Origin: Planctomycetales bacterium
GTDB taxonomy: Bacteria; Planctomycetota; Planctomycetia; Isosphaerales; Isosphaeraceae
Direction: 5' to 3'
Length of the DNA stretch: 32,000 nucleotides
Assembly (NCBI GenBank): GCA_027452145.1
Contig: DAIDHB010000418.1
Span: forward strand, 11,332-43,331
The translations under genes were made by a program, and so were the position numbers. Position 1 is the first letter of the stretch, and every line of letters begins with the position of its first letter. Positions 5,988-22,195 of this stretch are shown here, piece by piece. Below the pieces are notes generated by a model that saw only the letters and a list, made by a program, of their open reading frames with translations, ran no database searches and was not told where the DNA came from.

Positions 5988-6017
5988 CTTTTTTCGCGTC
6001 TTTCGCGCTTTTCGCGG
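5988..6017. repeat. Palindromic repeat family 1, half copy (right arm only)
   Basis: Three 9-nt units, TTTCGCGTC TTTCGCGCT TTTCGCGGTT, abut the stop codon (6018-6020) of the DGPF gene. They are the reverse complement of the ACCGCGAAA-type units at 18677-18704. The left arm (about 5912-5940) is degenerate. Confidence 0.6.
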
Positions 6018-7665: not shown

Positions 7666-8670
7666 TTACGGCGCCTCGTTCGCGGATTCGGCCGCAAGGC
7701 TCGCCGCCGCCTCGATCAGGTCGCGGCGGTGCTGGAGGTAAACCGCGATCGGCCGGTCGGCCGGGATGAAATGCTCGCCGATGTCGAGGTCGCCCACCCG
7801 CGGGGACTGCGACCGGATCACCACGTAGTCCTCGGCCAGGATCCGCAGATTGTAAAAGTTGCCGAGGCGTCCCACCAGGCGGACCAGGGCCGCGGGCAGG
7901 CTCGTCTTGAAGTAGCTTCGCAGGTAGTTGACGCAGCGCCCTTCTTCGACCGGGGCGACCACGTTGACGATCCGGAACCGGTCGGCGATCCGGAGCATCC
8001 AGGCGTTCGGGAAGCGGAACTCCAGCGAGGGGGGCTTGTCGGGCGGCGGGAGCTGCGTCGGCCGCGCCGCCGGCAGGCCCTCGTCCGGCTGGTTGGTGAC
8101 CCAGACGCGGATCGTGTCGTCTTCCAGCGTGGTGTACGGCCCGTTGACGAGCGTTCTCCCGTTGCGGCCGATCGTCCGGGCGTGGACGAACGGCAGGTGG
8201 CTGACGTCGAGCAGACCCTCGATCGCACGCGACATGTCGACGTCCCATTCCTTGCTGGTCGTGGCGTGGGCGAAGTCCTCCAGGCCGCCAAACCACGGGA
8301 CCGGCGGATACTCGTCGCGCGGGCGGCCGTGCCAGACCCAGACGAACCCGTGGGCCTCCTGCGTGGGATAGACCCGGCACTGGAAGACCCGGGGGACGTG
8401 CGCGGCCCGCCCGTTGGCCGGGATGAGCTGACAGGCTCCGTCACCGTCGTACTCGAATCCGTGAAACGGGCACTGGAGCCGCCCGGCCACGATCTTGCCG
8501 AGGCTCAACTGACTGCTCCGATGCGGGCATCGATCCTTCAAAACCGAGAGCCGGCCCTGGCCGTCCCGCCAGAAGACCAGATCTTCCCCCAGCCGGCGGA
8601 CGCCCAGCGGCTTGCCCGCGATGACCTCGCGCGATTCCAGTACGGCATACCAGCAATCGGGGATCAGCAT
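7666..8670 (-). CDS. Rieske [2Fe-2S] non-haem-iron oxygenase
   Basis: The Rieske motif is CPHRSSQLSLGKIVAGRLQCPFHGFEYDGDG (CxH...CxxH). The mononuclear-iron motif is EGLLDVSHLPFVH. GGGAGG lies upstream of the ATG at 8670. Confidence 0.9.
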   Translation of the reverse strand: MLIPDCWYAVLESREVIAGKPLGVRRLGEDLVFWRDGQGRLSVLKDRCPHRSSQLSLGKIVAGRLQCPFHGFEYDGDGACQLIPANGRAAHVPRVFQCRVYPTQEAHGFVWVWHGRPRDEYPPVPWFGGLEDFAHATTSKEWDVDMSRAIEGLLDVSHLPFVHARTIGRNGRTLVNGPYTTLEDDTIRVWVTNQPDEGLPAARPTQLPPPDKPPSLEFRFPNAWMLRIADRFRIVNVVAPVEEGRCVNYLRSYFKTSLPAALVRLVGRLGNFYNLRILAEDYVVIRSQSPRVGDLDIGEHFIPADRPIAVYLQHRRDLIEAAASLAAESANEAP

Positions 8671-8910
8671 GCCCGCGACCTCCCTTTCTCGGCCTGGTCC
8701 GTCGTTCCAGTCACCCCCGCTCAGTGTAAGCGAGCGGCGAGGCTACAGCAGGGGCACCATCGCCCGCGGCGAGGCCGTTACCGGAGGTCTCGCCGGCAGT
8801 CCGCACGGCCGGGCGGCCGAACGGCCCGGCCCGATCGCTCGACGCCCGAGGACAGGCCGCAGAGGAGCGGATTGCTTCCCGGTGCCCCTGGTCGTCGCCC
8901 AAAGCGAAGA

Positions 8911-9249
8911 TCAAACCGGCTCGCAGTCCGAGCCCATCATGTTGCCGACGGCCCTGACCAGCACGCGCCACCGCGTTTCGTCCAGCGCCTCGAGATGTTC
9001 GCCCAGTTCTTCTCGGCGGATGGAGAAGAGGGACTCGGTCTGTGCGACGCAATCAACATCGAGGCCGAATTCCCCGGCCCGAAATGGGATGCAATTGGGT
9101 TGTCTCGAGCGTTCCTCGAACCGTTTGGAGGTGATCAGGACGGCCACGACCCAGTTGCCGCGGTTCAACTCCTCGCGCGAGATGATCACGATCGGGTGTG
9201 GCGGCATTTCTTCGAAGTCGGCGAGATAGATTTCACCAGGCCGGATCAT
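8911..9249 (-). CDS. Type II toxin, PemK/MazF family
   Basis: The product reads MIRPGEIYLADFEE..HPIVIISREELNRGNWVVAVLITSKRFE...GEFGLDVDCVAQTESLFSIRREELGEHLEALDETRWRVLVRAV. This follows the PemK/MazF pattern (GDIYxVDF...RPxVVxS...VVxPITS...SxVxxDQIxTIxKxRL). Its start overlaps the upstream stop as ATGA. Confidence 0.8.
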   Translation of the reverse strand: MIRPGEIYLADFEEMPPHPIVIISREELNRGNWVVAVLITSKRFEERSRQPNCIPFRAGEFGLDVDCVAQTESLFSIRREELGEHLEALDETRWRVLVRAVGNMMGSDCEPV

Positions 9250-9458
9250 GCATCCTCCATCAGGCGGGCCCTGGCGTTCCGCTTGGCCACACGCAGGAAC
9301 GCCTCCTGTTCGCGCCGTTCTTCCTGATCGATGAGTCGGTCGTAGGCGTCGGCGCCGATCAGGACATAGCCGCGGTGCGTCTCCGGATCCGTGAGTCGGA
9401 CGGGCGAATCTCCGGCCTGCTCGATGGCGTGCTTCAGTTCCGGGGTCAGCGTCTCCAT
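9246..9458 (-). CDS. Antitoxin, Phd/YefM-like
   Basis: From the ATG at 9458 the product reads METLTPELKHAIEQAGDSPVRLTDPETHRGYVLIGADAYDRLIDQEE.... GGAGGAG lies 7 nt upstream of this ATG. The core resembles the Phd/YefM pattern PVxITxxGxxxxVLxSxExYxxL. It overlaps the toxin gene by 4 nt. Confidence 0.65.
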   Translation of the reverse strand: METLTPELKHAIEQAGDSPVRLTDPETHRGYVLIGADAYDRLIDQEERREQEAFLRVAKRNARARLMEDA

Positions 9459-9591
9459 GGGTCGGCTCCTCCGTCCGGCCGTTTCCGGTCGCTGTTCGTA
9501 CATTCGCTCAAATCGCGAGCCTCCATCGTAATCGCGGACCGCTCCCCTTGGGGAGGGCGATCGGCGCTGCTCTGGCGGTCGGGTGCCATCG

Positions 9592-10878
9592 TCAAACCTG
9601 TTCCAGCCGCATGCGGAGGAACCGGCGCTCGGGCTCTTGCTGGGCGAGGGCCAGCGCGCGCTCGTACGCCCGGCGCGCGTCGTCGCGCCGGCCCAGGCGC
9701 CGGAGGAAATCGGCGCGGGCGGCGTGCGCCAGGTGGTACCCGGTCAACTCGCCCCGGTCGAGGATCGCGTCGACCAGGTCGAGCCCGGCCGCCGGGCCGT
9801 CGCGCATCGCCACCGCGACCGCGCGGTTCAGCTCCACAACCGGCGAGGGGGTGATCGCCACAAGCGCGTCATACAGCGCGGCGATCTGCCGCCAGTCGGT
9901 GTCGGACGCCGCGGGCGCCGAGGCGTGGACGGCCGCGATCGCCGCCTGGACCGTGTACGGCCCGAACCGGCGCGAGGCCAGGGCCCGCTCGACCAGCTCC
10001 TGCCCCTCGGCGATCAGCCGTCCGTCCCACTTCGAGCGATCCTGGTGCTCGAGCAGCACGATGTCTCCCTCTGGCGATACCCGGGCCGTACGACGGGATT
10101 CGTGGAGCAGCATCAGGGCGAGCAGGCCGAGGATCTCCGCGTCGTGCAGCAACTCGGCAAGGAGCCGCCCCAGGCGGATCGCCTCGCCCGAGAGGTCCGC
10201 ACGCGTCAGCGACGCGCCCGACGTCGCCGAATAACCCTCGTTGAACACCAGGTAGACCACCGCAAGCACCGCCTCGAGCCGCTGCGGCAGCTCCTCGGCG
10301 GCGGGGATCGCGAACGGGATGCCGGCATCCCGGATCTTCGCCTTGCCGCGGACGATCCGCTGCGCCATCGTCGCCGGGGCGACCAGGAACGCCGCCGCGA
10401 TCTCGTCGGTCGTCAGACCGCACACCTCGCGAAGGGTGAGCGGGACCTGCACCTTCAGGTCGATCGCCGGGTGGCAGCAGGTAAAGATGAGCCGCAAGCG
10501 GTCGTCCTCGATCTCCTCGCTCGTGCGGCTCGCGTTCGTGTCGGCGACCTCGGCGAGCCGGCCGGCGATCTCGCGCTGGCGGCCGGCGAACGCGCCGCGG
10601 CGCCGCAGCGCGTCGATCGCCTTGAACCGACCCGTCGAGACCAGCCACGCCCGCGGGTTCTGCGGGACACCCTCGTGCTCCCACCGCTCGACGGCCGCCG
10701 CGAACGCCTCGTGCAGCGCCTCCTCGGCCAGGTCGAAATCGCGGATCAGCCGCACGAGGGACGCAAACACCCGGCGCGATTCCGTCCGGTAGATCTCGTC
10801 GATCAGGCCATGCAGGCTCCCCGGGGGCAAGCCAGACTCCGGGCCCACGCTATCCTGGCCTTCCTGCGCCAACCGCAT
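9592..10878 (-). CDS. ECF sigma factor with a long C-terminal (TPR-like/DUF6596) extension, ECF42-type
   Basis: The region 2 signature is [19 protein letters not shown]...[21 protein letters not shown]. The region 4 signature is [55 protein letters not shown]. About 220 aa of helical extension follow ([10 protein letters not shown]...[31 protein letters not shown]). DGPF/YCII and VOC genes are close by. Confidence 0.9.
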
Positions 10879-10901
10879 CGCGCCCCCCTCCCGGTCCGTC
10901 C

Positions 10902-10925
10902 GACGTTATCAGATGTCCAGGTTCC
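10902..10925 (-). promoter_or_regulatory. Candidate ECF-type promoter of the sigma-factor gene
   Basis: The minus strand reads GGAAC (10925-10921), a 15-nt spacer, then CGTC (10905-10902). It ends 24 nt upstream of the ATG at 10878, and GGGAGGGGGG lies between the two. A TGTCGA hexamer also sits at 10943-10938. Confidence 0.3.
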
Positions 10926-11377
10926 AGAAGAGTATCATCGACACCGGGCGCGGGGAAGACCAGTCCTCACATCGAGCTATCCCGAAACGGCCGGCGTGGC
11001 GTCATCATCACCACGGACCGAGGCACGACGACGCGCCGGGACGGAGGTGACGACGACTCATGAACCTCATCCGACCAGGCAAGCGAAGGCCGTCGAGCCC
11101 CCGAATGTGCAGGGGGCGCGAAGCTCCCGGGAAACTCCCGTGAGTGTCGCCACAAACGCTTGGATTTGACGCGAAGTCCGAGCATACTGCATTCGTATAC
11201 CGAGATGCTCTGATAAGGGTCGGTGAGCGCAAGATCGAATCGAGGCCACCGGACCGGACCGGACCGGCCGGCCTCGACCGACAGGAAACGGCTCGCGAGC
11301 GCGACGGAGCGATTCCGCCGACCTGCCGCGCGGGCCAGCAACCCGGCCGACTGATCCGATCCGAGGGGCCATCGACC

Positions 11378-12169
11378 ATGCCGTCCGACCCCAGGCGAAG
11401 CCCAGGGCCGACCGACGATCGCTACGACTGCCTGATCATCAGCGACCTGCACCTCGGCAGCGAGGTCTGCCAGGCGAAACTCCTCGAGGAGTTCCTCGAG
11501 TGGGCCGTCGACCGCACGCGCGAACTCGTCATCAACGGGGATATCTTCGACGACCTGAACTTCCGGCGGCTGTCGAAACGCCACTTCGCCTGCCTCAAGA
11601 TCATCCGCCGCAACTCGGACCGCGACGACCTCCGCCTGATCTGGATCCGCGGCAATCACGACGGGCCGGCCGACGTCGTCGGCCACATCGTCGGCGTCGA
11701 GGTGCGGGACGAGTACGAGTTCCGCAACGGCGACGTCCGCCTGCTGATCCTCCACGGCGACCAGTTCGACCGCTTCGTCAACAACTACGGCCTGCTGACC
11801 GAGGTGGCCTGTGGCGTGTTCTACTACATCCAGAAGTGGGCGCCGCACCGGACCGCCCGCTACATCCGACGGGTCTCGAAGCGATGGCAGCGCAGCAGCG
11901 CGACGATCCGCGAGGGGGCCGTGCGCTACGCCCGGTCCCGAGGCTGCCGTGCCATCGCCTGCGGGCACACGCATTTCCCCTCGCTCGACACGAACCAGGG
12001 GGTCCTGTACGCCAACAGCGGTACGTGGACCGAACCGCCCCCCTGCCCCTTCATCGCCGTGAAGGGCTCGGAGATCCGCCTGGAATACTGGCCGCTCGCC
12101 GACCGCGAAGCCCGCGCCCTGGTCCCGGGCGAACACAAGGCCCCGAACACCGAACCCGCACCGGTCTAG
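11378..12169 (+). CDS. Calcineurin-like metallophosphoesterase, LpxH-like
   Basis: From the ATG at 11378 the product reads ...DCLIISDLHLGSE...ELVINGDIFDD...LIWIRGNHD...LLILHGDQFD...IACGHTH. These are the DxH / GDxxD / GNHD / H / GHxH metallophosphoesterase motifs in the correct order. The upstream 78 codons of track ORF 11144..12169 look non-coding. Confidence 0.85.
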   Translation: MPSDPRRSPGPTDDRYDCLIISDLHLGSEVCQAKLLEEFLEWAVDRTRELVINGDIFDDLNFRRLSKRHFACLKIIRRNSDRDDLRLIWIRGNHDGPADVVGHIVGVEVRDEYEFRNGDVRLLILHGDQFDRFVNNYGLLTEVACGVFYYIQKWAPHRTARYIRRVSKRWQRSSATIREGAVRYARSRGCRAIACGHTHFPSLDTNQGVLYANSGTWTEPPPCPFIAVKGSEIRLEYWPLADREARALVPGEHKAPNTEPAPV

Positions 12170-12208: not shown

Positions 12209-13027
12209 ATGAGCAGCGCACCGGCCGTCCAGCACGCGTACAACGACGTCGTCGCCTCGCATTACGACCTCGATCCCCAGGGGATCATCGGCCAGTCGCT
12301 CGACCTGGGGATCGGGCAGCTCGAGCAGGAGGGACTGCTCGACCCCTCGCGGGGCTGGCGGGTACTCGACCTGGGCATGGGAACCGGCCTGTTCCTGGGC
12401 AAGCTCCGCACGCGGGCCGGCGACCGGCTCGAGCCGTTCGGGATCGACCTGGCCGAGAACATGCTGGAAGTCGCCCGACGCCGGCTCCCCGACCTCAACG
12501 CCGTGGCCGGCGACGCCGGCGAGCTCGACTCACATTTCCCCGGCCTGACCTTTGATTGCGTCTGCACCCACTTCGTGACCGGGTTCGTGCCGATGGCCCG
12601 CCTGGCGCCCCAGATCGCCCGGCGAGTCGAGCCGGGCGGATACTGGTCGCTCATCGGCGGGACAAAGGCCGCATATCCGGCGCTCCAGGCCAGGGGGAAC
12701 TCCAGGCTGCTCCGCCGCCTCACCGGCGCCGGAAATCGCAAGATGGACGACACGGTCCTCAATCCCGCCGACCTCCGCGAGGTCGCCGACACGATGGACG
12801 CCCACGGCTTCGACCTCTGCCGCGGCGAGACGTTCGAACCGGCGCTCACCTTCAACACCTTCGACGAGTTCATGGAGTTCGGCTACCGCGGCGGCTGGCT
12901 GACTCCGCTGCTCGAGTCCATGGGCCTGCACCGCGCCGGGCCGATCAAGCGCTGGGTCCTCGACCGCATCGCCTTCCCGGTCCACGACCAGCACAACATC
13001 GTCGTCGCGCTCGGACGCAAGAGGTAG
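12209..13027 (+). CDS. Class I SAM-dependent methyltransferase
   Basis: Motif I is RVLDLGMGTGLFLGKL. It is followed by FGIDLAENMLEVARRR and FDCVCTHFV, the post-I and motif II/III pattern. Confidence 0.85.
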   Translation: MSSAPAVQHAYNDVVASHYDLDPQGIIGQSLDLGIGQLEQEGLLDPSRGWRVLDLGMGTGLFLGKLRTRAGDRLEPFGIDLAENMLEVARRRLPDLNAVAGDAGELDSHFPGLTFDCVCTHFVTGFVPMARLAPQIARRVEPGGYWSLIGGTKAAYPALQARGNSRLLRRLTGAGNRKMDDTVLNPADLREVADTMDAHGFDLCRGETFEPALTFNTFDEFMEFGYRGGWLTPLLESMGLHRAGPIKRWVLDRIAFPVHDQHNIVVALGRKR

Positions 13028-13069: not shown

Positions 13070-13183
13070 GAGGAACCACGAAAAACACGAAATGACACGA
13101 AAAAGAGGGCGATCGAGGTGCCGGCGAGTGTGACTCCCCTCCTGTTTCCCTTTCGTGTGATTCCGTGTTTTTCGTGGTTCCTC
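13070..13183. repeat. Palindromic repeat family 1, longest copy; likely bidirectional terminator
   Basis: The sequence is GAGGA ACCACGAAA AACACGAAA TGACACGAAA, about 40 nt of spacer, then TTTCGTGTGA TTCCGTGTT TTTCGTGGT TCCTC. The outer 19 nt (13070-13088 and 13165-13183) are perfectly complementary. It lies between convergent stops at 13027 and 13199. Confidence 0.85.
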
Positions 13184-13198
13184 CGGGATTCTGTACCC

Positions 13199-13732
13199 TT
13201 ACCTCGTCCAGTCCTGCCGGCGGAACAGCAGGTAGTTGAGGCAGATCGGGATCTCGTAGACGAGCAGGATGAGATTCAGATCCCGGCCGGGCGGGAAGCG
13301 CCGGTTGAACTCGGACATATCGGCCGCGGCCGTCCAGATCCGGTGGTTCCACGACTGGAACTTGTAGAAGGCCGGGGCCATCGCCAGGAAGCCCAGGATC
13401 GACCAGGCCGGCAGCGTGGGCAGCACCAGCACGCTCGCGACGAAAATGATCAGCAAGGCAGCCGTCGCCAGGATGACGCGCGCCGGGGCATTGATGGCAA
13501 CCACCGCGAGATACATCGCGGCCATCGCCGCCAGTATCGGCCACGTGGCCGGCGCGCCGAGGTGCCGGGCCGCCTGGTCAATCGCCGCATAGATCCCGTA
13601 CCACAGTCCGTAGAGCGCCACAACGTGCGCCACGTTGATGCCGAATTGCGAGTGCCGGCCCAGGTGCCGAGCATACAGCTCGTCGAAGTCAACGTGCCGC
13701 AAGCTGAGCGGCCGGGTCGTCTGCGTGCTCAT
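13199..13732 (-). CDS. Integral membrane protein, possibly DUF962/Mpo1-like
   Basis: There are about four hydrophobic segments (VVALYGLWYGIYAAI, WPILAAMAAMYLAVVAI, ILATAALLIIFVASVLVL, WSILGFLAMAPAF). His-containing patches HSQFGINVAH and FQSWNHRIW resemble the HxxxxNVxxH and FQFxGHxxF patches of Mpo1-like proteins. That comparison is from memory and is a weak call. The start overlaps the upstream gene by 44 nt. Confidence 0.65.
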   Translation of the reverse strand: MSTQTTRPLSLRHVDFDELYARHLGRHSQFGINVAHVVALYGLWYGIYAAIDQAARHLGAPATWPILAAMAAMYLAVVAINAPARVILATAALLIIFVASVLVLPTLPAWSILGFLAMAPAFYKFQSWNHRIWTAAADMSEFNRRFPPGRDLNLILLVYEIPICLNYLLFRRQDWTR

Positions 13733-15860
13733 GATCTCCCTTCTTCCGGATTGGTGACGGCAGGATCAGGCCGCCGAGACCGGCGGCCAGAAGCTTCCAG
13801 AATGGCGAGTTCACCACCTCGGCGATCGTCCGGCAGGCTGCGCGGACATCGTCCGGCCCGGCGTTGAGCGGCGGGGTGATCTTCAGGACGTTCGGCTCGT
13901 ACTGGCAGAAGCCGGCGAGCACCGGAAACCGCGGGTGCCGGAGCATGGCGAGGAGCACCAAGGCCCCGAGCCGCTTCCCCAGCCATCGCCGTGGTGGACG
14001 GCTCGCGTCAAGCTCGACGCCGATCAGCAGGCCGAACGCCCGCACCTCGCGGACGTGGCGGCTCGAGGCCAGAGACTCGGCGAGCCCGGCGCGGAATACT
14101 TCGGCTGCCTCCTCGACCTGCCGGCTCAGGTCGATCCGCTCGCCCAGGCGGATGAGATTTATGACCGTGCGATATCCTTGCTCGTAATCGAATCGCCCCT
14201 TGATCGCGTCGACCAGCGTCGGCGCGAGCGCATCGAGCCGCTTGGCCATGGCGTCGGAATAGAGCGTCAACGCGAAGGGGAACATCATATCCGAGGTGCC
14301 CTTGCCCAGCAGCAGCAGGTCCGGCGTCAGGCCGATGGCACGCGACCGGACGAACGGCCCGGTGCGGTACATCCCGGTCTGGACCTCGTCCACCAGCAGC
14401 AGATAGCCGTGACGACGGCGACCCTCGTCAAGGTGCCGAATCACGGCCTCCGGGATCGCGCGCACACCACCCACGGACTGGATCAACTCGAGCTGGACGA
14501 CGGCAAAGTCGTGCGTCTCCATGAGCGCGTCGATCCGGGCGCAGGCATCGGGCTCGAACGGGTCGACGTAGTGGACCTCGGGATAGAGGGGGCCGATCCC
14601 CTCCTTGTACTTGGGATTGGCGGTGCCCGTCAGCGCGAACAGGGTCTTCCCCCCGAACCCGGCCTCCAGTGCGAGCACATGGCCACGGGGATGCTGGGCC
14701 GCGAGCGCCAGCTTGAGCGCGATCTCGACGGCGCCGCCTCCGCTGGCCGCGGGCAAGAACCGGCCGAGGCCGGTGAGCCGCCGCAGACGGTCGGAGAGCT
14801 CGGCCTCGAGCTCCGCGCCGCTCGGGATCGCGGGCGAGGTCGTCTCGTCGAGATAGTTCGGCGGATTGTGCCCGCGCATGCTGCACGCGACGCCGCCCAC
14901 CACGTCATAGATCGGCTGCCCGCCCACGACCACGAACGAGCCCGACGCGCGGACGTCCGCCGTCTCGAACCCGGCCGCACGGATCAGCCGAAGGAGCGAG
15001 GGATTGTAGTGACGCCGGAACGCCTCGCCGCGGCGCTCGAGGTCGTCGCGCACGGCTCGAAGATCGTCGGCGTGGCGGTCGACGAACGCTGGGTCAGCCC
15101 CGGCCAGGCACGCGAGGAAATGCCGCGCCGAGATCGTGTTGGGCTGGAAGGTCGTCGAGTGGAACGTCCCCTTGCCCGGCCGGTTCCACACGGCGAAGAG
15201 CGACCGCCGCGCCGTGAACGCACCGAACGGGACCGCGCGATCGACGAACGACTCATCGAAGACGATCACGTCGGGCACGACGAGGCCCGGCAGGCGTCCC
15301 GGATCGGCTCGGATCGCATCGAGGGCCGCGCGATCGACGCAGGTAACGACCCCTGGCGCGTCGCGGGTCAAGATCCGCTCGATGGCCGCCGCGTGCTCAT
15401 CCAGAAGCTCGTCATCCGAGGCGACCAGCACGAGCGGATCGATCCGCGTCGCGCCCGAGGCGGCCGCAATTCCTTCAAGCGTCTCGCCGGGCGCGCGGAC
15501 CTCGGGCAGGAACTCGACGCGCCCGCCGCCGGCCAGCTCGGCCGAGGCGAATCCGGCGAGCCGGCCGGCGGGGTCGAGGATCAGGGCCGTCGACCGGGCG
15601 TCGGGCCGCGCCCGATTGCACCGCAGGAGCTTCAGCGCGCCGCTCAGCGCCTCCTCGAGGCCATTGGCCAGGAACGACTGGTAGTCCTCGTCGTCGCGGC
15701 CGTCCGCCCACGTCGTGCGGGCGTAGCGATCCAGGCACAGGCAGAGCTGCGCGACGTGCGGGTTGAGATACAGCCGGAGGAAGTTCGGCTCCTGCTCGTG
15801 CAGGATCGACGCGATCGTCTCGGCGAGCGGCGGCGCGCTTTGCATTCGTGGCCTGGCCAT
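13689..15860 (-). CDS. Double-length class-III (omega-type) PLP aminotransferase with a degenerate N-terminal copy
   Basis: The C-terminal half carries GHNP, SGGGAVEIALKLA, FGGKT, VDEVQTGMYRTG and LLLGKGTSD (Schiff-base Lys). The N-terminal half shows a diverged copy without that Lys. The track start is a TTG at 15869. I prefer the ATG at 15860, which is 10 nt after the upstream stop. Confidence 0.85.
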   Translation of the reverse strand: MARPRMQSAPPLAETIASILHEQEPNFLRLYLNPHVAQLCLCLDRYARTTWADGRDDEDYQSFLANGLEEALSGALKLLRCNRARPDARSTALILDPAGRLAGFASAELAGGGRVEFLPEVRAPGETLEGIAAASGATRIDPLVLVASDDELLDEHAAAIERILTRDAPGVVTCVDRAALDAIRADPGRLPGLVVPDVIVFDESFVDRAVPFGAFTARRSLFAVWNRPGKGTFHSTTFQPNTISARHFLACLAGADPAFVDRHADDLRAVRDDLERRGEAFRRHYNPSLLRLIRAAGFETADVRASGSFVVVGGQPIYDVVGGVACSMRGHNPPNYLDETTSPAIPSGAELEAELSDRLRRLTGLGRFLPAASGGGAVEIALKLALAAQHPRGHVLALEAGFGGKTLFALTGTANPKYKEGIGPLYPEVHYVDPFEPDACARIDALMETHDFAVVQLELIQSVGGVRAIPEAVIRHLDEGRRRHGYLLLVDEVQTGMYRTGPFVRSRAIGLTPDLLLLGKGTSDMMFPFALTLYSDAMAKRLDALAPTLVDAIKGRFDYEQGYRTVINLIRLGERIDLSRQVEEAAEVFRAGLAESLASSRHVREVRAFGLLIGVELDASRPPRRWLGKRLGALVLLAMLRHPRFPVLAGFCQYEPNVLKITPPLNAGPDDVRAACRTIAEVVNSPFWKLLAAGLGGLILPSPIRKKGDHEHADDPAAQLAAR

Positions 15861-15870
15861 CCGGTTCAAT

Positions 15871-17742
15871 TCAGTTGCTGTGCTTGCCGGGGTTGTAACG
15901 GACGTCCGGGAGTGTGCTGGCGGTATAGGCGTCGAATCGCTTCTTATCGACGCGGAACAGGAACAGGTCGGCAGAGACGCGGTCCTCGTCGCAAAACGGC
16001 GAGTGCGGCATCCCGTCGCGGCGGATGTAGCGGAGCTGGATCTTGCGGAGCGGGACCTGCGCGTGAGTGCGCCAGAACGTCTCGAACTCCCCCGGCGTGA
16101 AGAAAAGCTCGGTGTGCCAGGCCACGCGGCGGCTCAGGGCGTGCATGAGGAACGAGGTGACCGGGTTCTCCTCGAGCCGATCCCAGAGCCGGCCCAGGGC
16201 GTCGCGGGGCAGCTCGAGCGCGCGGCCGCTCGGGTCGTCGAGATCCGTGTAATAGCGAGCGACCGCGACGGTGCGGCTGGCGGCATGCCCCTGGCGGATC
16301 TCGACGTTCCCGGCCCCGACGTCGCGGAGCGCGGCGAGCAGCTCGGCGGCCGTCGCGTCGGTCAGCGTCTCGCGGCGGACGAAGTACCGCGATTTCGGCC
16401 GGGCGCGCAGGTACAGGCGCAGGACGATGGCCGGGGATTGCAGGTTGTAGACGTTCTCGGCGAACTCGCGATCCTCGCGCTGTGCCGAGACGATCCGGTC
16501 TCGCCCGGGGTCGTACAGCACGACGCGGGTGATCGTATCGGCCACGGTCGCATAATCGACGGCCGACCCGTGGATCGGCACGAAGAACGCGGTCCCGAGC
16601 GCGACGTACGAGTAATTCGGGACGACGTGCAGCTCCTCGCCCCCCTCGGCCAGGCGGGCCATCGCGTCGTGGATCGTGGCCCCGCAGTCCGCCTTGAGCC
16701 GGGCCGCCCCGGCGCGGACGCGGGCCGTCCGGCGGCAGCGGACCGTCGAGACGATGGTCTTGCCCGGATAACGATGGCCGAAGTGATGGACGCCGTTGTT
16801 GTACCCGACCACGCGGACCCGCCCGATGTTCCCCGCGTGGCAGAGCGCGATCAGCTCACCGAACGAGCGCGGCCGGATGACGGGCACATGGAGCTGACGC
16901 ACCACCGGCGAGAGCCGCGCCAGGGCCGTCACGATGAGCCCGAGCACCTCGCCAACCAGCAGCCACGAGAAGATCCTGGCGATCGCCGACACCGCCACCT
17001 GCACGGGCGAGCCGCCCCGATTCCGCCGGAGCAACTCCCGCCAGGGCGTGTTCGCCCCCAGCAGCGTGAAGGCCCGGCGATCGCGCGGCAGGCGTCGCCC
17101 TGCCGCGGCCTCGTCGGCCGGGCAGCCCGCGTCGAGCCGCTCCGCCTCGATCGCCTCGAACATCTCCGACGCCGGCAGGAAGCAGGCCGACAGCCGCGCC
17201 GGGATCAGCGGCCAGAGCGGGGCGAGCCATCGGATCGCCCGGCCCGCCGGCGAATGCGGACCGATCAGGTGACCCGGGCGGAACACGATGATCCGAGGCC
17301 CCGGGACGGCCTTCTCGAATAGCGCCCGCGCGAAGCGCTCGGCCTCCTCGGCCGCCGGGTCATCCAGGTGCACGCGGAAACTGCCGACGATGCCGACAAA
17401 CCCAATCGACCATCGCCGCGCCTGCTCCGCCAGGCCGGCCAGATCGCGGCGGCGGGCCTCCGACAGCCGCGGACCGATGAAGACGATCATGGCATTGGGC
17501 TGATCGCGGCCGGCCGGTCCTTCGGATGGGGAGCGTAGCCACTCGCGCGGCAGGCGGCCCGGGTCGTCCCCGAGCAGCACGGCCTCGCCCCGAGCGCCCT
17601 GGCCCACGAAGGCGGCGTAGTCGGCCGCGGCGGGATGGCCGAGTCCCGCGACGAGCACGACGCCGGCGCCGGCCTCGACGGCCGGCGCCCGGCGCTCAGC
17701 GATCGCATGCGGGCTCGCCGAGCCGGAAGAGTGGCTGTCCAT
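15871..17742 (-). CDS. Three-module protein: degenerate Rossmann/SDR-like domain, TM helix, FAD-binding PCMH-type oxidoreductase domain
   Basis: The N-terminal part reads GVVLVAGLG...IVFIGP...IIVFRPGHLIGP. The TM segment is VQVAVSAIARIFSWLLVGEVLGLIVTALA. The C-terminal part reads VRVVGYNNGVHHFG...LKADCGATIHDAMARLAEGGEELHVVPNYSYVALGTAFFVPIHGS, which resembles the FAD_binding_4 core. The start is set at the ATG at 17742 (MDSHSS), because the upstream 66 codons of the track ORF lie inside the psd gene. Confidence 0.75.
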   Translation of the reverse strand: MDSHSSGSASPHAIAERRAPAVEAGAGVVLVAGLGHPAAADYAAFVGQGARGEAVLLGDDPGRLPREWLRSPSEGPAGRDQPNAMIVFIGPRLSEARRRDLAGLAEQARRWSIGFVGIVGSFRVHLDDPAAEEAERFARALFEKAVPGPRIIVFRPGHLIGPHSPAGRAIRWLAPLWPLIPARLSACFLPASEMFEAIEAERLDAGCPADEAAAGRRLPRDRRAFTLLGANTPWRELLRRNRGGSPVQVAVSAIARIFSWLLVGEVLGLIVTALARLSPVVRQLHVPVIRPRSFGELIALCHAGNIGRVRVVGYNNGVHHFGHRYPGKTIVSTVRCRRTARVRAGAARLKADCGATIHDAMARLAEGGEELHVVPNYSYVALGTAFFVPIHGSAVDYATVADTITRVVLYDPGRDRIVSAQREDREFAENVYNLQSPAIVLRLYLRARPKSRYFVRRETLTDATAAELLAALRDVGAGNVEIRQGHAASRTVAVARYYTDLDDPSGRALELPRDALGRLWDRLEENPVTSFLMHALSRRVAWHTELFFTPGEFETFWRTHAQVPLRKIQLRYIRRDGMPHSPFCDEDRVSADLFLFRVDKKRFDAYTASTLPDVRYNPGKHSN

Positions 17743-18595
17743 AGCGGACCTTCTCGTTGGGGGTGACCAGGGGAATCGCGCCGGGCGCCGGCGGCGCAAG
17801 CAGGACGACGGTGGAACCAAGCTCGAAGGTCGCCATCCAGTCGCCCCGCGCGACGGCCGGCGGCGGGTCGCGGTCGAACGACTCGACCCGCCGCGAACGG
17901 GGGCGAAATCGGGGCACGAGCGGGCCGGTGACGTGCCCAACGCCCCAACCGGCGACCATCACGACGGCCATCGGGCCGGCCTGCGTCGACAGATGCAGGA
18001 TCACGCGTTCGTTCAGAGTGTAGACCGGGTACTCCGGGCGCTGCAACGTCGGGTGCACCAGCAACCGCGAGCCCGGCACGTGCACCACGCGATCGAGCCG
18101 CCCGCCGGCCGGGCTGAACACGCGGTGGCAGTCGATCGGTGAGAGGAAGACGACCGCGAAGAGGCCGCCCTCGAACGGCCGGGCGTCGCCGCCGGCCAGC
18201 AGCGAGGCGACCGAGTATTCGATCCCCTTGACCGTCAGCAGCGTCCCGTCGTCCACGCGGCCGACGTCCTGCACGCGGCCGTCGCACGGGCTGAGCACCG
18301 TCGCGTTGCCCATCGCGATGGGCCTCGCCTCGGGCCGCAGGCCGCGAGTGAACAGGGCATTGAGAGACGGGTAGTCCTCCAGGGCCCGCTCCGACTCGGC
18401 CTCGTCCAGGCCGGGCGGATACCGGCGGACGTACTGATCCCGAAACAGACGGCGCCGCACCCGCCGCGACGGGATCGGCACACGCGAAAGCTTCACCGCC
18501 AGCGCCGCCAGGCCGAGCGACACCAGCCCGCCGTGGATGGCGCGGGCCTGGCGGATCTGCTCCAGCCGGATCGACAATCGCCGCGCGAGGGTCAT
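17696..18595 (-). CDS. psd: Phosphatidylserine decarboxylase family proenzyme
   Basis: This is the C-terminal 299 codons of track ORF 17696..19744, starting at the ATG at 18595 (MTLARRLSI). It has an N-terminal TM helix (GGLVSLGLAALAV). It carries the PSD motifs FLSPIDCHRVFSP and FELGSTVVLL (the LGST self-cleavage site), followed by a 35-aa tail. Confidence 0.85.
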   Translation of the reverse strand: MTLARRLSIRLEQIRQARAIHGGLVSLGLAALAVKLSRVPIPSRRVRRRLFRDQYVRRYPPGLDEAESERALEDYPSLNALFTRGLRPEARPIAMGNATVLSPCDGRVQDVGRVDDGTLLTVKGIEYSVASLLAGGDARPFEGGLFAVVFLSPIDCHRVFSPAGGRLDRVVHVPGSRLLVHPTLQRPEYPVYTLNERVILHLSTQAGPMAVVMVAGWGVGHVTGPLVPRFRPRSRRVESFDRDPPPAVARGDWMATFELGSTVVLLAPPAPGAIPLVTPNEKVRYGQPLFRLGEPACDR

Positions 18596-18676
18596 GACAG
18601 GCGGGCCTCTCCTCAGGGCGTCTGACACCACATCGAAGGAACCGACCCGATTCAGGTGCGGTCCCTTGAATACTGG

Positions 18677-18773
18677 AACCGCGAAAGACGCGAAAACGCG
18701 CGAATGAGTGGGCCGATCCATCCGACGGCGAGTGGAATTCTCATCTGTTCTCCATTTGGCGTTTGTCGCGGTT
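18677..18773. repeat. Palindromic repeat family 1 copy (CGCGAA variant)
   Basis: The sequence is AACCGCGAAA GACGCGAAA ACGCGCGAA, a spacer containing GGGCCGATC...CGGCGAGTG, then TTTGGCGTT TGTCGCGGTT. The outer 8 bp are perfectly complementary. It lies 47 nt 3' of the GMC gene stop. Confidence 0.75.
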
Positions 18774-18819
18774 AATCCGAGACCTTTCCGCGGACTCTTC
18801 GGAATCTCTTCGAATCCGA

Positions 18820-20379
18820 TCACACCTCCGCGACCACCTTCGACGCCACGCGCAGGGCGTTGGCGATGATCGTGAGCCCGGGGCCGACGCCCAGGGAGGT
18901 CGGCAGGAAGCTGCCGTCCACGGCGAACACATCCGGGTTCGCGAACATCCGGCAATCCGGGTCGAGCACCGCGTGCGTCGGGTCGCGGCCGAAGCGGAGG
19001 GTTCCGCACTGGTGGGCGACGTGCTCGTGCGAATCCCGCCGCGTCGAGACGAAATACATCGCGCCCGACCGGCGGAGGATCCGCGCGAGCTGCGGCTTCA
19101 TGTGCTTGCGCCGGGCGAGGTCGAACCGCGAGTACCGGTGGGCGAGCAGCGCCTGGTTGCTCGGGCCCAGCGTCACGCGGTTGGCCGGGTCGGGCAGGTC
19201 CTCGATCAGGCCGAGCAGCGGCAGGATCCGCTGGCGCAGGAACTGCCGCACGGGCGGCGGCACGAACGGAGCGAACTTCGCCACCATCAGCGGCCCCGGT
19301 ACCGCCAGCGACTGGATCACTCCCATCTTGTGCGGGAACCGCCTCGTGCCGAAGTAGAAGTCGGCGAATCCCACCTGCTTGACAAACGTCGAATCCGCGT
19401 CGATCGTCCGGGGATACACACCGACCACGACCGCGCCCAGGTGGAGCATGTAATTCCGGCCGATCAGCGGATGGACCATCCCCGAGCGCAGGAGCAGCAG
19501 CGACGACCCGATGGCGCCCGCGGCGATCGCATAGCGCCTCGCCCGGTAATGCCGGCGACGGCCGGTCGACCGATCGAGCACCGAGAGCAACGTCGCCCCG
19601 GTGCCCGGCTCGCGGACCAGCCGCTCGACCTCGACCCGGGTCTGGACCTTGATGGGCTGGCCGCCGCTCATGGCCGACTCGAGCAACTGCGCCGAAGATC
19701 GACGCGCTCCCGTCGGGCAGAGATACCCCGCGCACGCCGCGCACCTCAGGCAGCGCGACGAGTCGATCGCCAGCGGCAGGTGGAACGGGTGCAGGCCGCG
19801 TTCGCGATTGGCCGTCATCAGCCGCTGGTTCAGCGGATGCAAGGGCAACGGCGACCCCGGGTACCCGCGGGCCGGCTTCTTCAGCGGGGCGAAGTCCTCG
19901 TCCCCGCAGCCCGCGACCCCGAAGAGCCGCTCGGCCTCCGTGTAGTGCGGCTCGAGCTCGTCGTAGCCGATCGGCCAGTCCCAGATCGCGCGCGGGACCC
20001 GATCGCCGTAGTACCGCCCCGGCTGGAAATCCTGCTCGCTCGGCCGGAGCAACGCCCCGCCGTACAGGCTCGTCCCACCCCCCAGTATCCCGCCCATGTA
20101 CAACCGGCTGGATCGGCCGTTGACATCGACCTCGCGATCGTCGTATGGCCCCTTGTCGATCAGCACCGCCTGCTCGTCATGCGGCGCAGCCTCCGCCGGA
20201 TACCGATCGCCCCGCTCCAGCACCAGGACCGACTTCCCCGCGCCCGCGCAGGCCGCCGCGAAGGTCGCGCCCCCCGCCCCGCTGCCGACGACGATCACGT
20301 CGCAGTCGTACTCCACCCCAGCCTCCCGACGGCCGCCACCCGAAGGGCCGACATGCACATCCTCGCCCGTCGCCGTCAC
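18820..20379 (-). CDS. GMC-family FAD oxidoreductase
   Basis: The N-terminal dinucleotide fold is YDCDVIVVGSGAGGATFAAACAGAGKSVLVLERG. The C-terminal GMC pattern is HVAHQCGTLRFG...VLDPDCRMFANPDVFAVDGSFLPTSLGVGPGLTIIANALRVA. The start codon is the GTG at 20379, as in the track. Confidence 0.9.
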   Translation of the reverse strand: MTATGEDVHVGPSGGGRREAGVEYDCDVIVVGSGAGGATFAAACAGAGKSVLVLERGDRYPAEAAPHDEQAVLIDKGPYDDREVDVNGRSSRLYMGGILGGGTSLYGGALLRPSEQDFQPGRYYGDRVPRAIWDWPIGYDELEPHYTEAERLFGVAGCGDEDFAPLKKPARGYPGSPLPLHPLNQRLMTANRERGLHPFHLPLAIDSSRCLRCAACAGYLCPTGARRSSAQLLESAMSGGQPIKVQTRVEVERLVREPGTGATLLSVLDRSTGRRRHYRARRYAIAAGAIGSSLLLLRSGMVHPLIGRNYMLHLGAVVVGVYPRTIDADSTFVKQVGFADFYFGTRRFPHKMGVIQSLAVPGPLMVAKFAPFVPPPVRQFLRQRILPLLGLIEDLPDPANRVTLGPSNQALLAHRYSRFDLARRKHMKPQLARILRRSGAMYFVSTRRDSHEHVAHQCGTLRFGRDPTHAVLDPDCRMFANPDVFAVDGSFLPTSLGVGPGLTIIANALRVASKVVAEV

Positions 20380-20587
20380 GCCGATATGGTCGCCGATGAA
20401 GAGTCAGTGATCAAGACATTCAGAAATGATTCATCAAATCTTGACCGGGGCTTCTCAATCCGGCCATTGCAGGCATCGCCGCTTGCTGCGATCGACGGGC
20501 CCTTGTGTCGGACGGATCCGATCGATTAGCTTCTGGTTACTCCGGATCAAATGGACGCAGGTCGATCACCCCGCGCTGGAGCGGACC

Positions 20588-22195
20588 ATGAATCCTCATC
20601 GTCGGTCGATCGGGTCGGCATGGCTGATCGGATGTCTGCTCGTGACGGGTGCCTTCGGATTGGGCCTGCCCGCCCGTTCGCGGGCGGACGAGATCGAGCT
20701 GACCCTCCGGACGCGCGACCCGAAGACCGGCGCCGTCCGCACGACCGCCGAGCGCGTCGACCCGCGCCGGGTCGGCGTCATCGCCGTGGACGTGTGGAAC
20801 TTCCACTGGTGCAAGACCGCGACGATGCGGGTGGACGCCCTGGTGCCGCGGATTGATCGGGCGCTCGAGGCGGCCCGGGCGATGGGCATGACGGTGATGC
20901 TCTGTCCCAGCGACGTGGTGGACAACTACGTCGGATTTCCCCAGCGCGAGGCGGTGTTCGCCCTGCCTCGCGTCGACGTGCCTTCGGTGGTCGAGGTCAA
21001 GTGCCCGCCGGCGCCCGATGCCGGCGGATGCGCCTGCGGCCGCGAGCGGTGCGCCGTCAATTACGGGTGGGACGGGATGCACCCCGGCCTCCGGATCGGG
21101 CCAGATGACCTGATGCCCGACACCCGGGACGAGGTGTATGCCATCTGCCGGAAGAATGGCCTGACCCATTTGATCTACGTCGGCTTCCATACGCAGGTCT
21201 GCCTGCTGGGCAAGCCGATGGGCCTGAAGGCGATGAAGTCCGCGGGGCTGAAATGCGTCCTGGCGCGCGACATGACCGACGCCCACCCCGGCTATGACCC
21301 GGCGCGCGGCTTCACGCCCGACCTCAACACCGAGCAGGTCGTCGAACATTTCGAGAAGTACCTGGCGCCCACGATCGGGCTTCAGGAGGAGCTGGCCCGG
21401 CTGGGTCGCTGGGATTCCCGGTGGGTCCTGGACCCGGTTTGGATCGCACCCTGGGGGGCGCCCCAGCGGCCGCACCTGTTCGAGCAGCCGATCATCGTGA
21501 CGCTATCGGCGCCCTTCCAGCCGGGCGCCGAGATCCGCTACACCCTCGACGGCTCGGCGCCGACCGCCGGCTCGCCGAGATACACGGCTCCGCTGACGCT
21601 CGCCGACACCACGCACCTGCGAGCCTCGGCGTTTCGCGACGGGCAGCCGGTCTGCCGCGAGTCCGAAGGTTCGTTCGCCCGGATGGGTCCGATGCCTCCC
21701 TTGCCCGATGTCTACCTGGGCGATCTATCGCCGATCCGCAGCGTCGGGTTCGGGCATACCTATGGCCAGAACGTCCGCTACTCGGGAAACACCCGCGCCC
21801 CGCAGAAGGACCATGCCAACCTGGGAGGCGACATCCGAATCAATCGATCCAAATATCGTCGCGGGATCGGGATGCACGCCCCGTGCGAGCTCGCCTACGC
21901 GATCAAGCCCAGCTACGCGCGGTTCGTCGGCCTGGCGGGGGTCGACGAAAACCTCATCGGCATCAGCAACGGTTCGAACCTCGCCCGCTATCCGAGCGTG
22001 GTCTTCAAGGTGTTCATCGACGGCAAGGAGGCGGCGTCGAGCCCGTTGATGCGCATCCAGTCGCCGGCCTGGCGGTTCGACGTGCCGATCCCCGAAGGCG
22101 CGCGGCTGATCAGCCTGGCGATCACCGACGCGGGCGACGGCTCGCGCGAGGACTTCGCCGACTGGGCCAATGCCGGGTTCGTCGTCCGGAAGTAA
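20588..22195 (+). CDS. Secreted fusion protein: isochorismatase-like (cysteine hydrolase) domain, chitobiase/hexosaminidase-C-like domain, NPCBM domain
   Basis: The ATG at 20588 gives the signal peptide MNPHRRSIGSAWLIGCLLVTGAFGLGLPARSRA. The first domain reads VIAVDVWNFHWC...GLTHLIYVGFHTQVCLLGKPMGLKAMKSAGLKCVLARDMTDA. The middle domain reads IIVTLSAPFQPGAEIRYTLDGSAPTAGSPRYTAPLTL. The C-terminal domain is NPCBM-like: VYLGDLSP...INRSKYRRGIGMHAPCELAYAI...FVGLAGVDE...VVFKVFIDGKE...DFADWANAGF. Confidence 0.85.
   Translation: MNPHRRSIGSAWLIGCLLVTGAFGLGLPARSRADEIELTLRTRDPKTGAVRTTAERVDPRRVGVIAVDVWNFHWCKTATMRVDALVPRIDRALEAARAMGMTVMLCPSDVVDNYVGFPQREAVFALPRVDVPSVVEVKCPPAPDAGGCACGRERCAVNYGWDGMHPGLRIGPDDLMPDTRDEVYAICRKNGLTHLIYVGFHTQVCLLGKPMGLKAMKSAGLKCVLARDMTDAHPGYDPARGFTPDLNTEQVVEHFEKYLAPTIGLQEELARLGRWDSRWVLDPVWIAPWGAPQRPHLFEQPIIVTLSAPFQPGAEIRYTLDGSAPTAGSPRYTAPLTLADTTHLRASAFRDGQPVCRESEGSFARMGPMPPLPDVYLGDLSPIRSVGFGHTYGQNVRYSGNTRAPQKDHANLGGDIRINRSKYRRGIGMHAPCELAYAIKPSYARFVGLAGVDENLIGISNGSNLARYPSVVFKVFIDGKEAASSPLMRIQSPAWRFDVPIPEGARLISLAITDAGDGSREDFADWANAGFVVRK

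Follow-up and report, generated by a model that had tools for sequence, protein, structure and literature searches.

The 32,000-nt stretch of DNA analyzed here (the window; contig DAIDHB010000418.1 of the Planctomycetales assembly GCA_027452145.1, positions 11,332 to 43,331 of the forward strand; ~68% G+C) carries a compact, putative operon of five minus-strand genes, which code for a GMC-family flavoprotein dehydrogenase, a pyruvoyl decarboxylase of the phosphatidylserine decarboxylase (PSD) family, a membrane-anchored FAD fusion protein, a two-domain aminotransferase and a small membrane protein, and which face a convergent phosphoesterase-methyltransferase gene pair. We consider it probable that the genes at this locus modify the head group of a membrane lipid to give an amine. 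Its genes are arranged as follows (window coordinates, strand in parentheses):

18820-20379 (-): GMC-family flavoprotein dehydrogenase
18596-18819 (unstranded): GMC-PSD spacer, 224 nt, with an inserted REP-like inverted repeat
17696-18595 (-): PSD-family pyruvoyl decarboxylase proenzyme
15871-17742 (-): FAD fusion protein, short-chain dehydrogenase/reductase (SDR)-like + membrane hairpin + VAO/PCMH
13689-15860 (-): aminotransferase, class III, two-domain
13199-13732 (-): small membrane protein with 3-4 transmembrane (TM) segments, distantly Mpo1/DUF962-like, final gene of the core operon
12209-13027 (+): class I S-adenosylmethionine (SAM)-dependent methyltransferase, convergent to the core operon
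11375-12169 (+): metallophosphoesterase, 39 nt upstream of the methyltransferase gene and co-directional with it

The coordinates of the five minus-strand genes were verified as given in a first-pass annotation of this DNA, as were a 47-nt overlap between the PSD and FAD genes, a 10-nt gap between the FAD and aminotransferase genes, a 44-nt overlap between the aminotransferase and DUF962-like genes, and the 224-nt GMC-PSD spacer. The 299-aa PSD, the 177-aa small membrane protein and the 272-aa methyltransferase are residue-for-residue the same as independent NCBI gene calls, and in-frame GTG codons at 20358, 20316 and 20298 are candidate true starts of the GMC gene. As is typical for high-G+C DNA, very long shadow open reading frames (ORFs, 519-721 aa) lie opposite the real genes or in another frame (13935-16100, 15763-17322 and 18763-20529 on the plus strand, 17696-19744 on the minus strand); of these, the 682-aa ORF that ends at 17696 continues the PSD frame beyond its true start at 18595, across the spacer and, out of frame, into the GMC gene.

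Scanning one genome per GTDB species with an alignment of FAD-protein homologues recovered 44 loci, from Isosphaeraceae (including Singulisphaera, Aquisphaera and Paludisphaera), Gemmataceae, Tepidisphaerales, Planctomycetaceae, Pirellulaceae and cyanobacterial metagenome-assembled genomes (MAGs) labeled Trichodesmium, Mastigocoleus or "Cyanobacteria bacterium" (assignments as given in the MAG records). Gene order, read by tblastn of the window proteins and judged as far as each contig extends, had been set beforehand as the check on which the first-pass reading could fail: none of the 44 loci departs from the co-directional order GMC-PSD-FAD-aminotransferase-DUF within the reach of its contig. 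Only seven families among the window ORFs recur in at least four loci (opposite-strand shadow ORFs excluded), namely the PSD (43/44), the FAD protein (42), the GMC enzyme (40), the aminotransferase (38), the small membrane protein (34), the methyltransferase (32) and the phosphoesterase (17). Tight packing is likewise repeated in independent gene calls on metagenome contigs, with overlaps of at most 50 nt, most gaps below 45 nt and a largest gap of 90 nt. This arrangement is far beyond chance, and the recurring overlaps and very short gaps uphold the earlier view of a single, tightly packed and conserved unit. All-against-all ORF clustering revealed no further conserved neighbors in the lineage of the window, and neither a phosphatidylserine synthase nor an acyltransferase was linked to the core in planctomycete loci. 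In MAGs named MFD... (loci L010, L011, L032-L035, L039, L042 and L043), the cluster genes appeared as several frame-shifted tblastn pieces, which looks like assembly indel error rather than pseudogenization.

The extent of the unit nonetheless differs from that first described: the five-gene core stands, but the unit is larger, with the methyltransferase, the phosphoesterase and, in most lineages, a GT4 glycosyltransferase, and the GMC gene is dispensable in one cyanobacterial branch. Broadly speaking, the typical layout is phosphoesterase (-) / GMC PSD FAD aminotransferase DUF (+) / GT4 (-) methyltransferase (-). The suggestion that the convergent methyltransferase and phosphoesterase belong with the cluster holds, as they lie near the core in 32/44 and 17/44 loci, respectively, the methyltransferase adjoining it in variable position and orientation. 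Outside Isosphaeraceae, most loci, and the Trichodesmium-type locus as well, have GT4 adjoining the methyltransferase; in Isosphaeraceae, window included, no GT4 was found within 10 kb. The top match of the GT4 of related loci is GlcNAc-phosphatidylglycerol synthase (GpgS), with 122.7 bits, i.e., well below the NCBIfam cut-off of 480.

Two types of cyanobacterial loci lack the GMC gene. A marine branch (L045/L046) reads PSD-FAD-aminotransferase-methyltransferase-DUF, followed by a FAAL-ACP-KS-AT polyketide synthase (in L045, a Tara Oceans contig, this same-strand type I gene spans 8120-11986 and is cut by the contig end). In Mastigocoleus-type loci (L028/L049, 1-9137; L048, 79-8185), the core lies directly behind genes for FAAL, a methyltransferase, CMAS, ACP, a fatty-acid desaturase, a TE-ACP-alpha-oxoamine synthase fusion, an SDR and GT4, surroundings that resemble a cyanobacterial biosynthetic cluster for sphingoid- or amino-type lipids. 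The invariable core is therefore the PSD, FAD protein, aminotransferase, methyltransferase and DUF protein. Taken with the membrane anchors and the GpgS-like GT4, the FAAL/polyketide synthase, TE-ACP-oxoamine synthase, desaturase and CMAS neighbors agree with the lipid-type context proposed at the outset. An MFS transporter, possibly an exporter or flippase for the cluster product, occurs near the core in two cyanobacterial-type loci (L047, 10219-12196, followed by a HAD hydrolase; L030, 3-662), the two copies being 43% identical.

The decarboxylase passes the family profiles with ease (PS_Dcarbxylase, PF02666: E 2e-46, 158.9 bits vs. a cut-off of 22; TIGR00163: 145 bits vs. 111.75), and the motifs noted in the first pass are intact, with the pyruvoyl precursor Ser261 in LGST (codon 17813-17815) and the catalytic His H157 at the position of E. 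coli His144. Across 37 cluster PSDs, the cleavage-site Gly-Ser is kept in every one (its flanks vary slightly) and H157 in 36. In contrast, the residues that bind the lipid phosphate in the E. coli enzyme, Tyr137 and Ser166 (PMC7952604), are replaced in the window protein by Phe150 (codon 18146-18148) and Leu179, as in 34/37 and 30/37 cluster PSDs, respectively. A full-library search returned Tyr at position 137 in 130 of the 134 nearest canonical PSD representatives, and Phe in 8/10 cluster-type ones. Cluster PSDs fall into a clade of their own, with ~40% identity to canonical PSDs and a drop in score from 336 to ~160 bits at the border between the two. A serine-type head group had been proposed as the substrate: the family assignment stands, but the loss of the phosphate-binding Tyr in this clade makes a phosphoserine head group doubtful, and hints at a linker other than a phosphodiester. 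The PSD retains a region that can be aligned to the N-terminal part of E. coli PSD, a membrane-associated enzyme; the N-terminus of the window protein lies below the hydropathy threshold for a TM segment, so that of three products thought to carry such segments, only the FAD protein (aa 249-275) and the small protein do so clearly.

The FAD protein comprises three parts:

17008-17667 (-): extended-SDR-like Rossmann domain, aa 26-245 (model pLDDT 87)
16912-17007 (-): hydrophobic helical hairpin/TM segment, aa 246-277, joining the two domains
15871-16890 (-): VAO/PCMH-type FAD domain, aa 285-623 (AlphaFold pLDDT 85, Foldseek)

Pfam FAD_binding_4 gives only 22-23.4 bits, under its gathering cut-off of 26.4, but the fold search confirms the VAO/PCMH-type flavoprotein first suspected from sequence, the two-domain VAO fold being matched with a Foldseek probability of 1.0 to 8qnb, 2vft and 5oel. 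Its top matches are L-galactonolactone dehydrogenase, alditol oxidase, DprE1 and type II cholesterol oxidase (E 4e-16 to 1e-13). Hydropathy peaks at 2.1 over aa 257-275, and helices are modeled at aa 246-260 and 263-277. A sequence profile of the N-terminal domain found no match in the PDB; the fold was identified from the predicted structure, which resembles WbmH, MoeE5, RMD, RmlD and GDP-fucose synthase (E ~1e-5, TM-score ~0.45). This SDR-like domain has no conserved YxxxK, nor any conserved Tyr or Lys; H125, D128, E135 and R155 are conserved instead.

The second flavoenzyme belongs to the GMC family, with both Pfam domains (GMC_oxred_N, PF00732: E 1e-16, 61 bits; GMC_oxred_C, PF05199: E 6e-14, 53 bits) and a conserved GxGxxG FAD motif (DVIVxGxGAGG). 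Its nearest PDB relatives are the alpha subunit of a membrane-bound FAD-glucose dehydrogenase (E 2e-25) and the large subunit of fructose dehydrogenase (E 1e-13), and 6'''-hydroxyparomomycin C oxidase is also among the matches. A CxxCxxCxxxxC motif at aa 210-221 (19717-19752), whose four Cys are invariant in 30/30 relatives, aligns with the Cys-rich stretch of 8hdd. In FAD-glucose and fructose dehydrogenases, this stretch binds an Fe-S cluster. The alignment of the four-Cys motif with the Cys-rich stretch of these sugar dehydrogenases points to an Fe-S dehydrogenase rather than the flavin alcohol oxidase first assigned, of which only the family membership stands. No genes for a partner cytochrome c or a small hitch-hiker subunit occur among the families conserved around the 44 loci.

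The aminotransferase was divided as follows:

15111-15860 (-): degenerate class-III-like N-terminal domain, aa 1-250, with Glu203 at the catalytic Lys position
13689-15110 (-): active class-III aminotransferase domain, aa 251-723, with catalytic Lys K520 (codon 14301-14303)

Pfam Aminotran_3 covers aa 304-623 only (E 3e-37, 128.5 bits), and the best PDB relative of the active domain is PigE (4ppm, E 6e-28), followed by acetylornithine and putrescine aminotransferases. DEVQTG, LGK and K520 are conserved there, and the HxSTfgGNP motif is absent. That motif is retained, as HSTTFQPN, in the degenerate domain. In class-III aminotransferases, the Thr of the partner subunit's HxSTfgGNP motif binds the phosphate of pyridoxal phosphate. 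Since the motif is kept in the dead N-terminal domain and lost from the active C-terminal one, the sequence suggests a single-chain, intramolecular pseudo-dimer with one active site, an architecture that we have not seen described. The "tandem" aminotransferase of the first-pass annotation is supported in this modified form by a profile of aa 1-250, for which 13 of 17 PDB matches at E<=10 are class-III aminotransferases in a consistent motif register (best E 0.0055, 2eh6, i.e., weak); however, Pfam recognizes one domain, hhalign of the N half against the C half was not significant (probability 0.4%), and single-sequence searches of aa 1-300 against PDB and Pfam gave nothing useful.

For the small membrane protein, the "DUF962-like" label survives at the family level only: the window protein has no Pfam match at E<=10, but 9 of 14 family members weakly match the Mpo1-like family PF06127 (best E 7.8e-4). 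Residues H27, N33, H36, Q126, H130 and D138 are invariant in the family. Mpo1 itself is a yeast Fe-dependent 2-hydroxy-fatty-acid dioxygenase (PMC10398889).

The methyltransferase (Pfam Methyltransf_25 and Methyltransf_11) has weak PDB relatives (E 1e-6 to 1e-3) that are mostly N-methyltransferases (CalS10, PmtA, PEAMT, DesVI and TylM1), and is itself a probable N-methyltransferase; it falls below the PmtA equivalog cut-offs (NF045882: 24.7 vs. 390 bits; NF045881: 17.2 vs. 250 bits). The phosphoesterase matches Pfam Metallophos and Metallophos_2 (E 4e-10 and 5e-11), and 13 relatives keep all of its metal-binding motifs (SDxHLG, GDxxD, GNHD, LHG and CGHxH). A search against PDB gave generic motif matches only and no relative. 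The "LpxH-like" label that it had first received is rejected, its scores being 28.8 bits against a cut-off of 134 (PRK05340) and 15.4 bits against 190 (TIGR01854).

It is tempting to speculate that these enzymes form a membrane-bound pathway which oxidizes, transaminates, decarboxylates and N-methylates a polyol- or sugar-type lipid head group, a chain that we prefer yet advance tentatively. In this genome, we infer a pathway of seven genes, i.e., the five-gene core and the convergent phosphoesterase-methyltransferase pair, with GT4 added in most other lineages. The two flavoenzymes, an Fe-S GMC dehydrogenase akin to sugar and aldonate dehydrogenases and a membrane-anchored, DprE1/alditol-oxidase-like FAD protein fused to an SDR-like domain, would oxidize polyol- or sugar-type head-group hydroxyls, probably at the cytoplasmic face of the membrane, and convert a terminal -CH(OH)-CH2OH or -CH(OH)-COOH to a 2-oxo acid. 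The pseudo-dimeric aminotransferase would turn this 2-oxo acid into an alpha-amino-acid (serine-like) head group, from which the PSD-type enzyme would strip the carboxylate to leave a primary amine, on a lipid link that, with the Tyr lost, is perhaps not a phosphodiester. N-methylation by the methyltransferase would then produce an ethanolamine- or choline-like, cationic or zwitterionic head group. On phosphatidylglycerol, for instance, the chain would run through phosphatidylserine-like and phosphatidylethanolamine-like intermediates to a phosphatidylcholine-like lipid. The phosphoesterase and GT4, which resemble a PlcP-Agt pair, may supply diacylglycerol and a glycosyl-lipid or may decorate the product, and the Mpo1-like protein could be an Fe-dependent oxygenase acting on a 2-hydroxy-acid intermediate or a membrane partner of the dehydrogenases. 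No other chain that we found supplies the always-present PSD with an alpha-amino-acid substrate from its own neighbors. The amine-forming membrane-lipid pathway of the first-pass annotation is thus supported in part: the conserved unit and the lipid context speak for it, and the oxidase, LpxH and phosphoserine points do not. A further step, which we regard as somewhat doubtful, would be that a glycerol or sugar head group is rebuilt in situ, independently of serine and CDP-diacylglycerol, into an undescribed ethanolamine- or choline-like and possibly phosphorus-free product.

Several observations weigh against this chain. The closest relatives of the aminotransferase (PigE, putrescine and acetylornithine aminotransferases) use terminal aldehydes or amines, not 2-oxo acids, as main substrate, and in the cyanobacterial branch without GMC a single flavoenzyme would have to suffice. 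A hexopyranoside added by GT4 gives no obvious route to an alpha-amino acid, and the Mpo1-like and SDR-like parts have no step in the chain. The argument from the lost Tyr is itself tempered by the Mastigocoleus-type PSDs, which retain Tyr, and by the E. coli Y137F enzyme, which retains ~50% activity (PMC7952604). Finally, wetland planctomycetes related to Singulisphaera acidiphila contain phosphatidylethanolamine, its monomethyl and dimethyl derivatives, and phosphatidylcholine (PMC7828035), so that the PSD and the methyltransferase could represent an ordinary phosphatidylethanolamine-to-phosphatidylcholine route.

Among the alternatives, an amino-glycolipid route survives best, although we think it unlikely. 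Here GT4 would glycosylate either phosphatidylglycerol or diacylglycerol set free by the phosphoesterase; the DprE1-like and GMC enzymes would oxidize a sugar hydroxyl of the resulting glycosyl-lipid to a keto or aldehyde group, from which the aminotransferase would make an amino sugar for N-methylation by the methyltransferase, while the PSD would work in parallel, e.g., making phosphatidylethanolamine. Such chemistry would parallel that of NeoQ/NeoB or ArnA/ArnB on a lipid-linked sugar, and would suit the affinities of several of the proteins: sugar-modifying enzymes are the closest relatives of the two flavoenzymes and of the SDR-like domain (with the 6'''-hydroxyparomomycin C oxidase among the GMC matches), the aminotransferase relatives act on aldehydes and primary amines, the methyltransferase relatives include the sugar N-methyltransferases CalS10, DesVI and TylM1, and GT4 is present in most non-Isosphaeraceae loci. 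However, this route leaves no role for the invariably present and tightly packed PSD, nor for the Mpo1-like protein, and GT4 is missing from the 10 kb around the core in Isosphaeraceae, window included.

The remaining three alternatives are each considerably less likely. If the PSD and the methyltransferase were housekeeping enzymes making ordinary phosphatidylethanolamine and phosphatidylcholine, the flavoenzymes, aminotransferase and small protein being unrelated or ancillary, this would fit a PSD that scores above the TIGR00163 equivalog cut-off, a methyltransferase that is weakly PmtA-like, and planctomycete lipids themselves, since phosphatidylcholine is a major lipid in S. acidiphila, and phosphatidylethanolamine and its monomethyl and dimethyl derivatives occur in related planctomycetes. 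The whole gene set moves together, however, cyanobacterial assemblies included, and cyanobacteria are not known to produce either phosphatidylethanolamine or phosphatidylcholine. The sharp separation of the PSD clade from canonical PSDs, with Tyr137 lost, the PmtA scores of 17-25 bits against cut-offs of 250-390, and the absence of pssA near the examined loci also make this explanation improbable.

We give similarly little credence to a fatty-amine or sphingoid route, in which a long-chain 2-hydroxy acid or 2-amino-1,3-diol would be oxidized to a 2-oxo or 2-amino acid and transaminated, whereupon decarboxylation by the PSD-like enzyme would leave a long-chain amine or amino-alcohol for N-methylation and, optionally, glycosylation. 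The sole characterized Mpo1 substrate is a 2-hydroxy fatty acid (PMC10398889), the PSD pocket is more hydrophobic (Tyr to Phe and Ser to Leu), and the cyanobacterial neighbors (FAAL, ACP, TE-ACP-oxoamine synthase, SDR, desaturase and CMAS beside the core in Mastigocoleus-type loci, and FAAL-polyketide synthase after it in L045) would all be in keeping with such a product. Yet the flavoenzymes resemble sugar/polyol rather than fatty-acid enzymes, planctomycete loci have no acyl-activating or oxoamine-synthase genes, and the Mpo1 assignment is itself weak.

A soluble small-molecule pathway (polyamine, compatible solute or secreted natural product), in which the PSD-family enzyme would decarboxylate a free amino acid, seems just as poor a prospect. 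PSD-family enzymes with soluble substrates do exist (PsiD and an Aspergillus arginine decarboxylase), the aminotransferase resembles putrescine and acetylornithine aminotransferases, and the phosphate-binding Tyr is lost; against this stand the membrane hairpin of the FAD protein, the 3-4 TM segments of the last protein, the PSD region aligned to the N-terminal part of the membrane-associated E. coli PSD, a GT4 of lipid head-group type and the lipid-building cyanobacterial neighbors. Two further candidates were set aside, namely trimethylornithine-lipid genes, as that pathway is already assigned to OlsG, OlsH and OlsI (PMC12493201), and an HpnO-like amination of hopanoid side chains, for which no hopanoid genes are linked and which leaves the PSD without a role.

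Each enzyme of the cluster comes from a known superfamily, but the combination matches no characterized pathway that we found; a targeted full-text literature search returned no description of the gene set, in line with the first-pass statement that none was known, and Singulisphaera orthologues of the FAD protein, aminotransferase, small membrane protein and methyltransferase carry generic names only. Among the core-operon orthologues in S. acidiphila (NC_019892) are AGA28330-AGA28332. The divergent PSD clade, the pseudo-dimeric aminotransferase and the fused SDR-VAO membrane flavoprotein are the noteworthy parts of what would be, in kind, a lipid head-group modification operon. The PssA/Psd/PmtA route shares with it a pyruvoyl PSD (LGST, catalytic His) beside a SAM methyltransferase and the succession of amino-acid head group, amine and N-methyl amine, but the cluster has no phosphatidylserine synthase, its PSD is of a separate clade with Phe, its methyltransferase scores far under the PmtA cut-offs, and it comes with an obligatory set of two flavoenzymes, an aminotransferase and an Mpo1-like protein. 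In phosphorus-stress lipid remodeling, plcP is often followed by agt, whose product makes glucosyl- and glucuronosyl-diacylglycerol (PMC4796936), and by gene adjacency the metallophosphoesterase next to GT4 in L036, L040 and L041 is similar; unlike PlcP-Agt, the window has no GT4, and the cluster has six further enzymes attached. The likeness to gpgSDF of Pseudomonas aeruginosa (PMC12713373) lies in a GT4 whose best NCBIfam match is GpgS and in an amine that both systems would put on an anionic or neutral lipid head group, but at 123 bits against a cut-off of 480 this GT4 is not an orthologue, the cluster has no deacetylase, and its amine is proposed to arise by transamination or decarboxylation.

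Three more systems resemble single steps of the proposed chain. The DprE1/DprE2 decaprenyl-phosphoryl-ribose epimerase pairs a VAO-type flavoenzyme, which oxidizes a hydroxyl on a lipid-linked sugar, with an SDR, two folds fused here in one membrane-anchored protein, although identity is ~14% and the SDR-like domain here has no conserved YxxxK; moreover, an aminotransferase follows the FAD protein, and a keto intermediate is therefore more likely to be aminated than reduced, unlike in DprE1/DprE2. In the NeoQ/NeoB type (LivQ, PDB 7dve), a carbonyl formed by a GMC flavoenzyme is converted to an amine by a class-III aminotransferase, but those enzymes are soluble and act on pseudo-oligosaccharides, the similarity is weak (E 2e-8 to 7dve), and the GMC protein here is of the Fe-S dehydrogenase branch. 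The phosphorylated serine pathway (SerA/SerC) leads from a 2-hydroxy acid through a 2-oxo acid to a serine-type amino acid, a functional analogy only, since its enzymes (the NAD-dependent SerA and the class-V aminotransferase SerC) come from unrelated families and work on soluble substrates.

The mapping of membrane-lipid diversity in bacteria is still under way, and for most lipids of planctomycetes the genes have yet to be assigned; in S. acidiphila, phosphatidylcholine, phosphatidylglycerol, phosphatidic acid, a trimethylornithine lipid and four unidentified spots have been reported (PMC12493201). A conserved eight-gene system in which two membrane flavoenzymes, a putative single-chain pseudo-dimeric aminotransferase, a divergent PSD and a methyltransferase are coupled would open an uncharacterized lipid class to genetics. 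If the in-situ rebuilding of a head group considered above is true, it would mean a new class of zwitterionic or cationic bacterial membrane lipids and a new substrate class for PSD-family pyruvoyl enzymes, and could reveal amine- or choline-like head groups made without serine, perhaps without phosphorus, which bears on nutrient stress in soils, peatlands and the ocean. A published gene-deletion method for Singulisphaera (PMC12493201) now brings such work within practical reach.

As for the spacers, the palindrome previously noted between the GMC and PSD genes exists, as an inverted repeat with 19-nt arms (18677-18695 and 18755-18773) that are 84% complementary, but the fold energy of the spacer is ordinary (z = -0.15). 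This speaks against a structured RNA or regulatory palindrome, and a REP-like insertion explains the repeat better: it is a copy of a dispersed REP-like element whose core, AACCGCGAAAGACGCGAAA, is found 5 times in the window's intergenic spacers, whereas chance would give 0 copies. Copies of the element lie at 5992-6019, 13070-13183 and 18677-18773 of the window, and also in L001 (14596-14616). In most other loci, the GMC-PSD spacer measures ~3-40 nt, and its unusual length here is due to the inserted element. A second spacer holds another copy:

13070-13183 (unstranded): REP-like palindrome in the convergent spacer between the methyltransferase and DUF962-like genes, 33-nt arms, 94% complementary, 48 nt apart

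No Rfam family was found in the window, and promoter and terminator scans gave results at chance level.

Other genes of the window are unrelated to the cluster and include those for an ECF sigma factor, a Rieske oxygenase, a MarR regulator, a nitroreductase and DUF1559 proteins. The divergent neighbor at 20426-22195 (+), which is not conserved with the cluster, codes for a 589-aa product in which aa 65-83 are likely to be a signal or TM segment; this protein also has a weakly isochorismatase-like stretch, together with NPCBM and chitobiase C-terminal/Fn3-associated domains. Two DUF1559 (SBP_bac_10) proteins, one of which has an N-terminal prepilin-type methylation motif, are encoded at 28132-29175 and 31172-31927 (-). 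DUF1559 proteins are a hallmark of planctomycete genomes, and these genes fit an Isosphaeraceae origin of the window, whose closest matches are at 85% identity to an Isosphaeraceae MAG.

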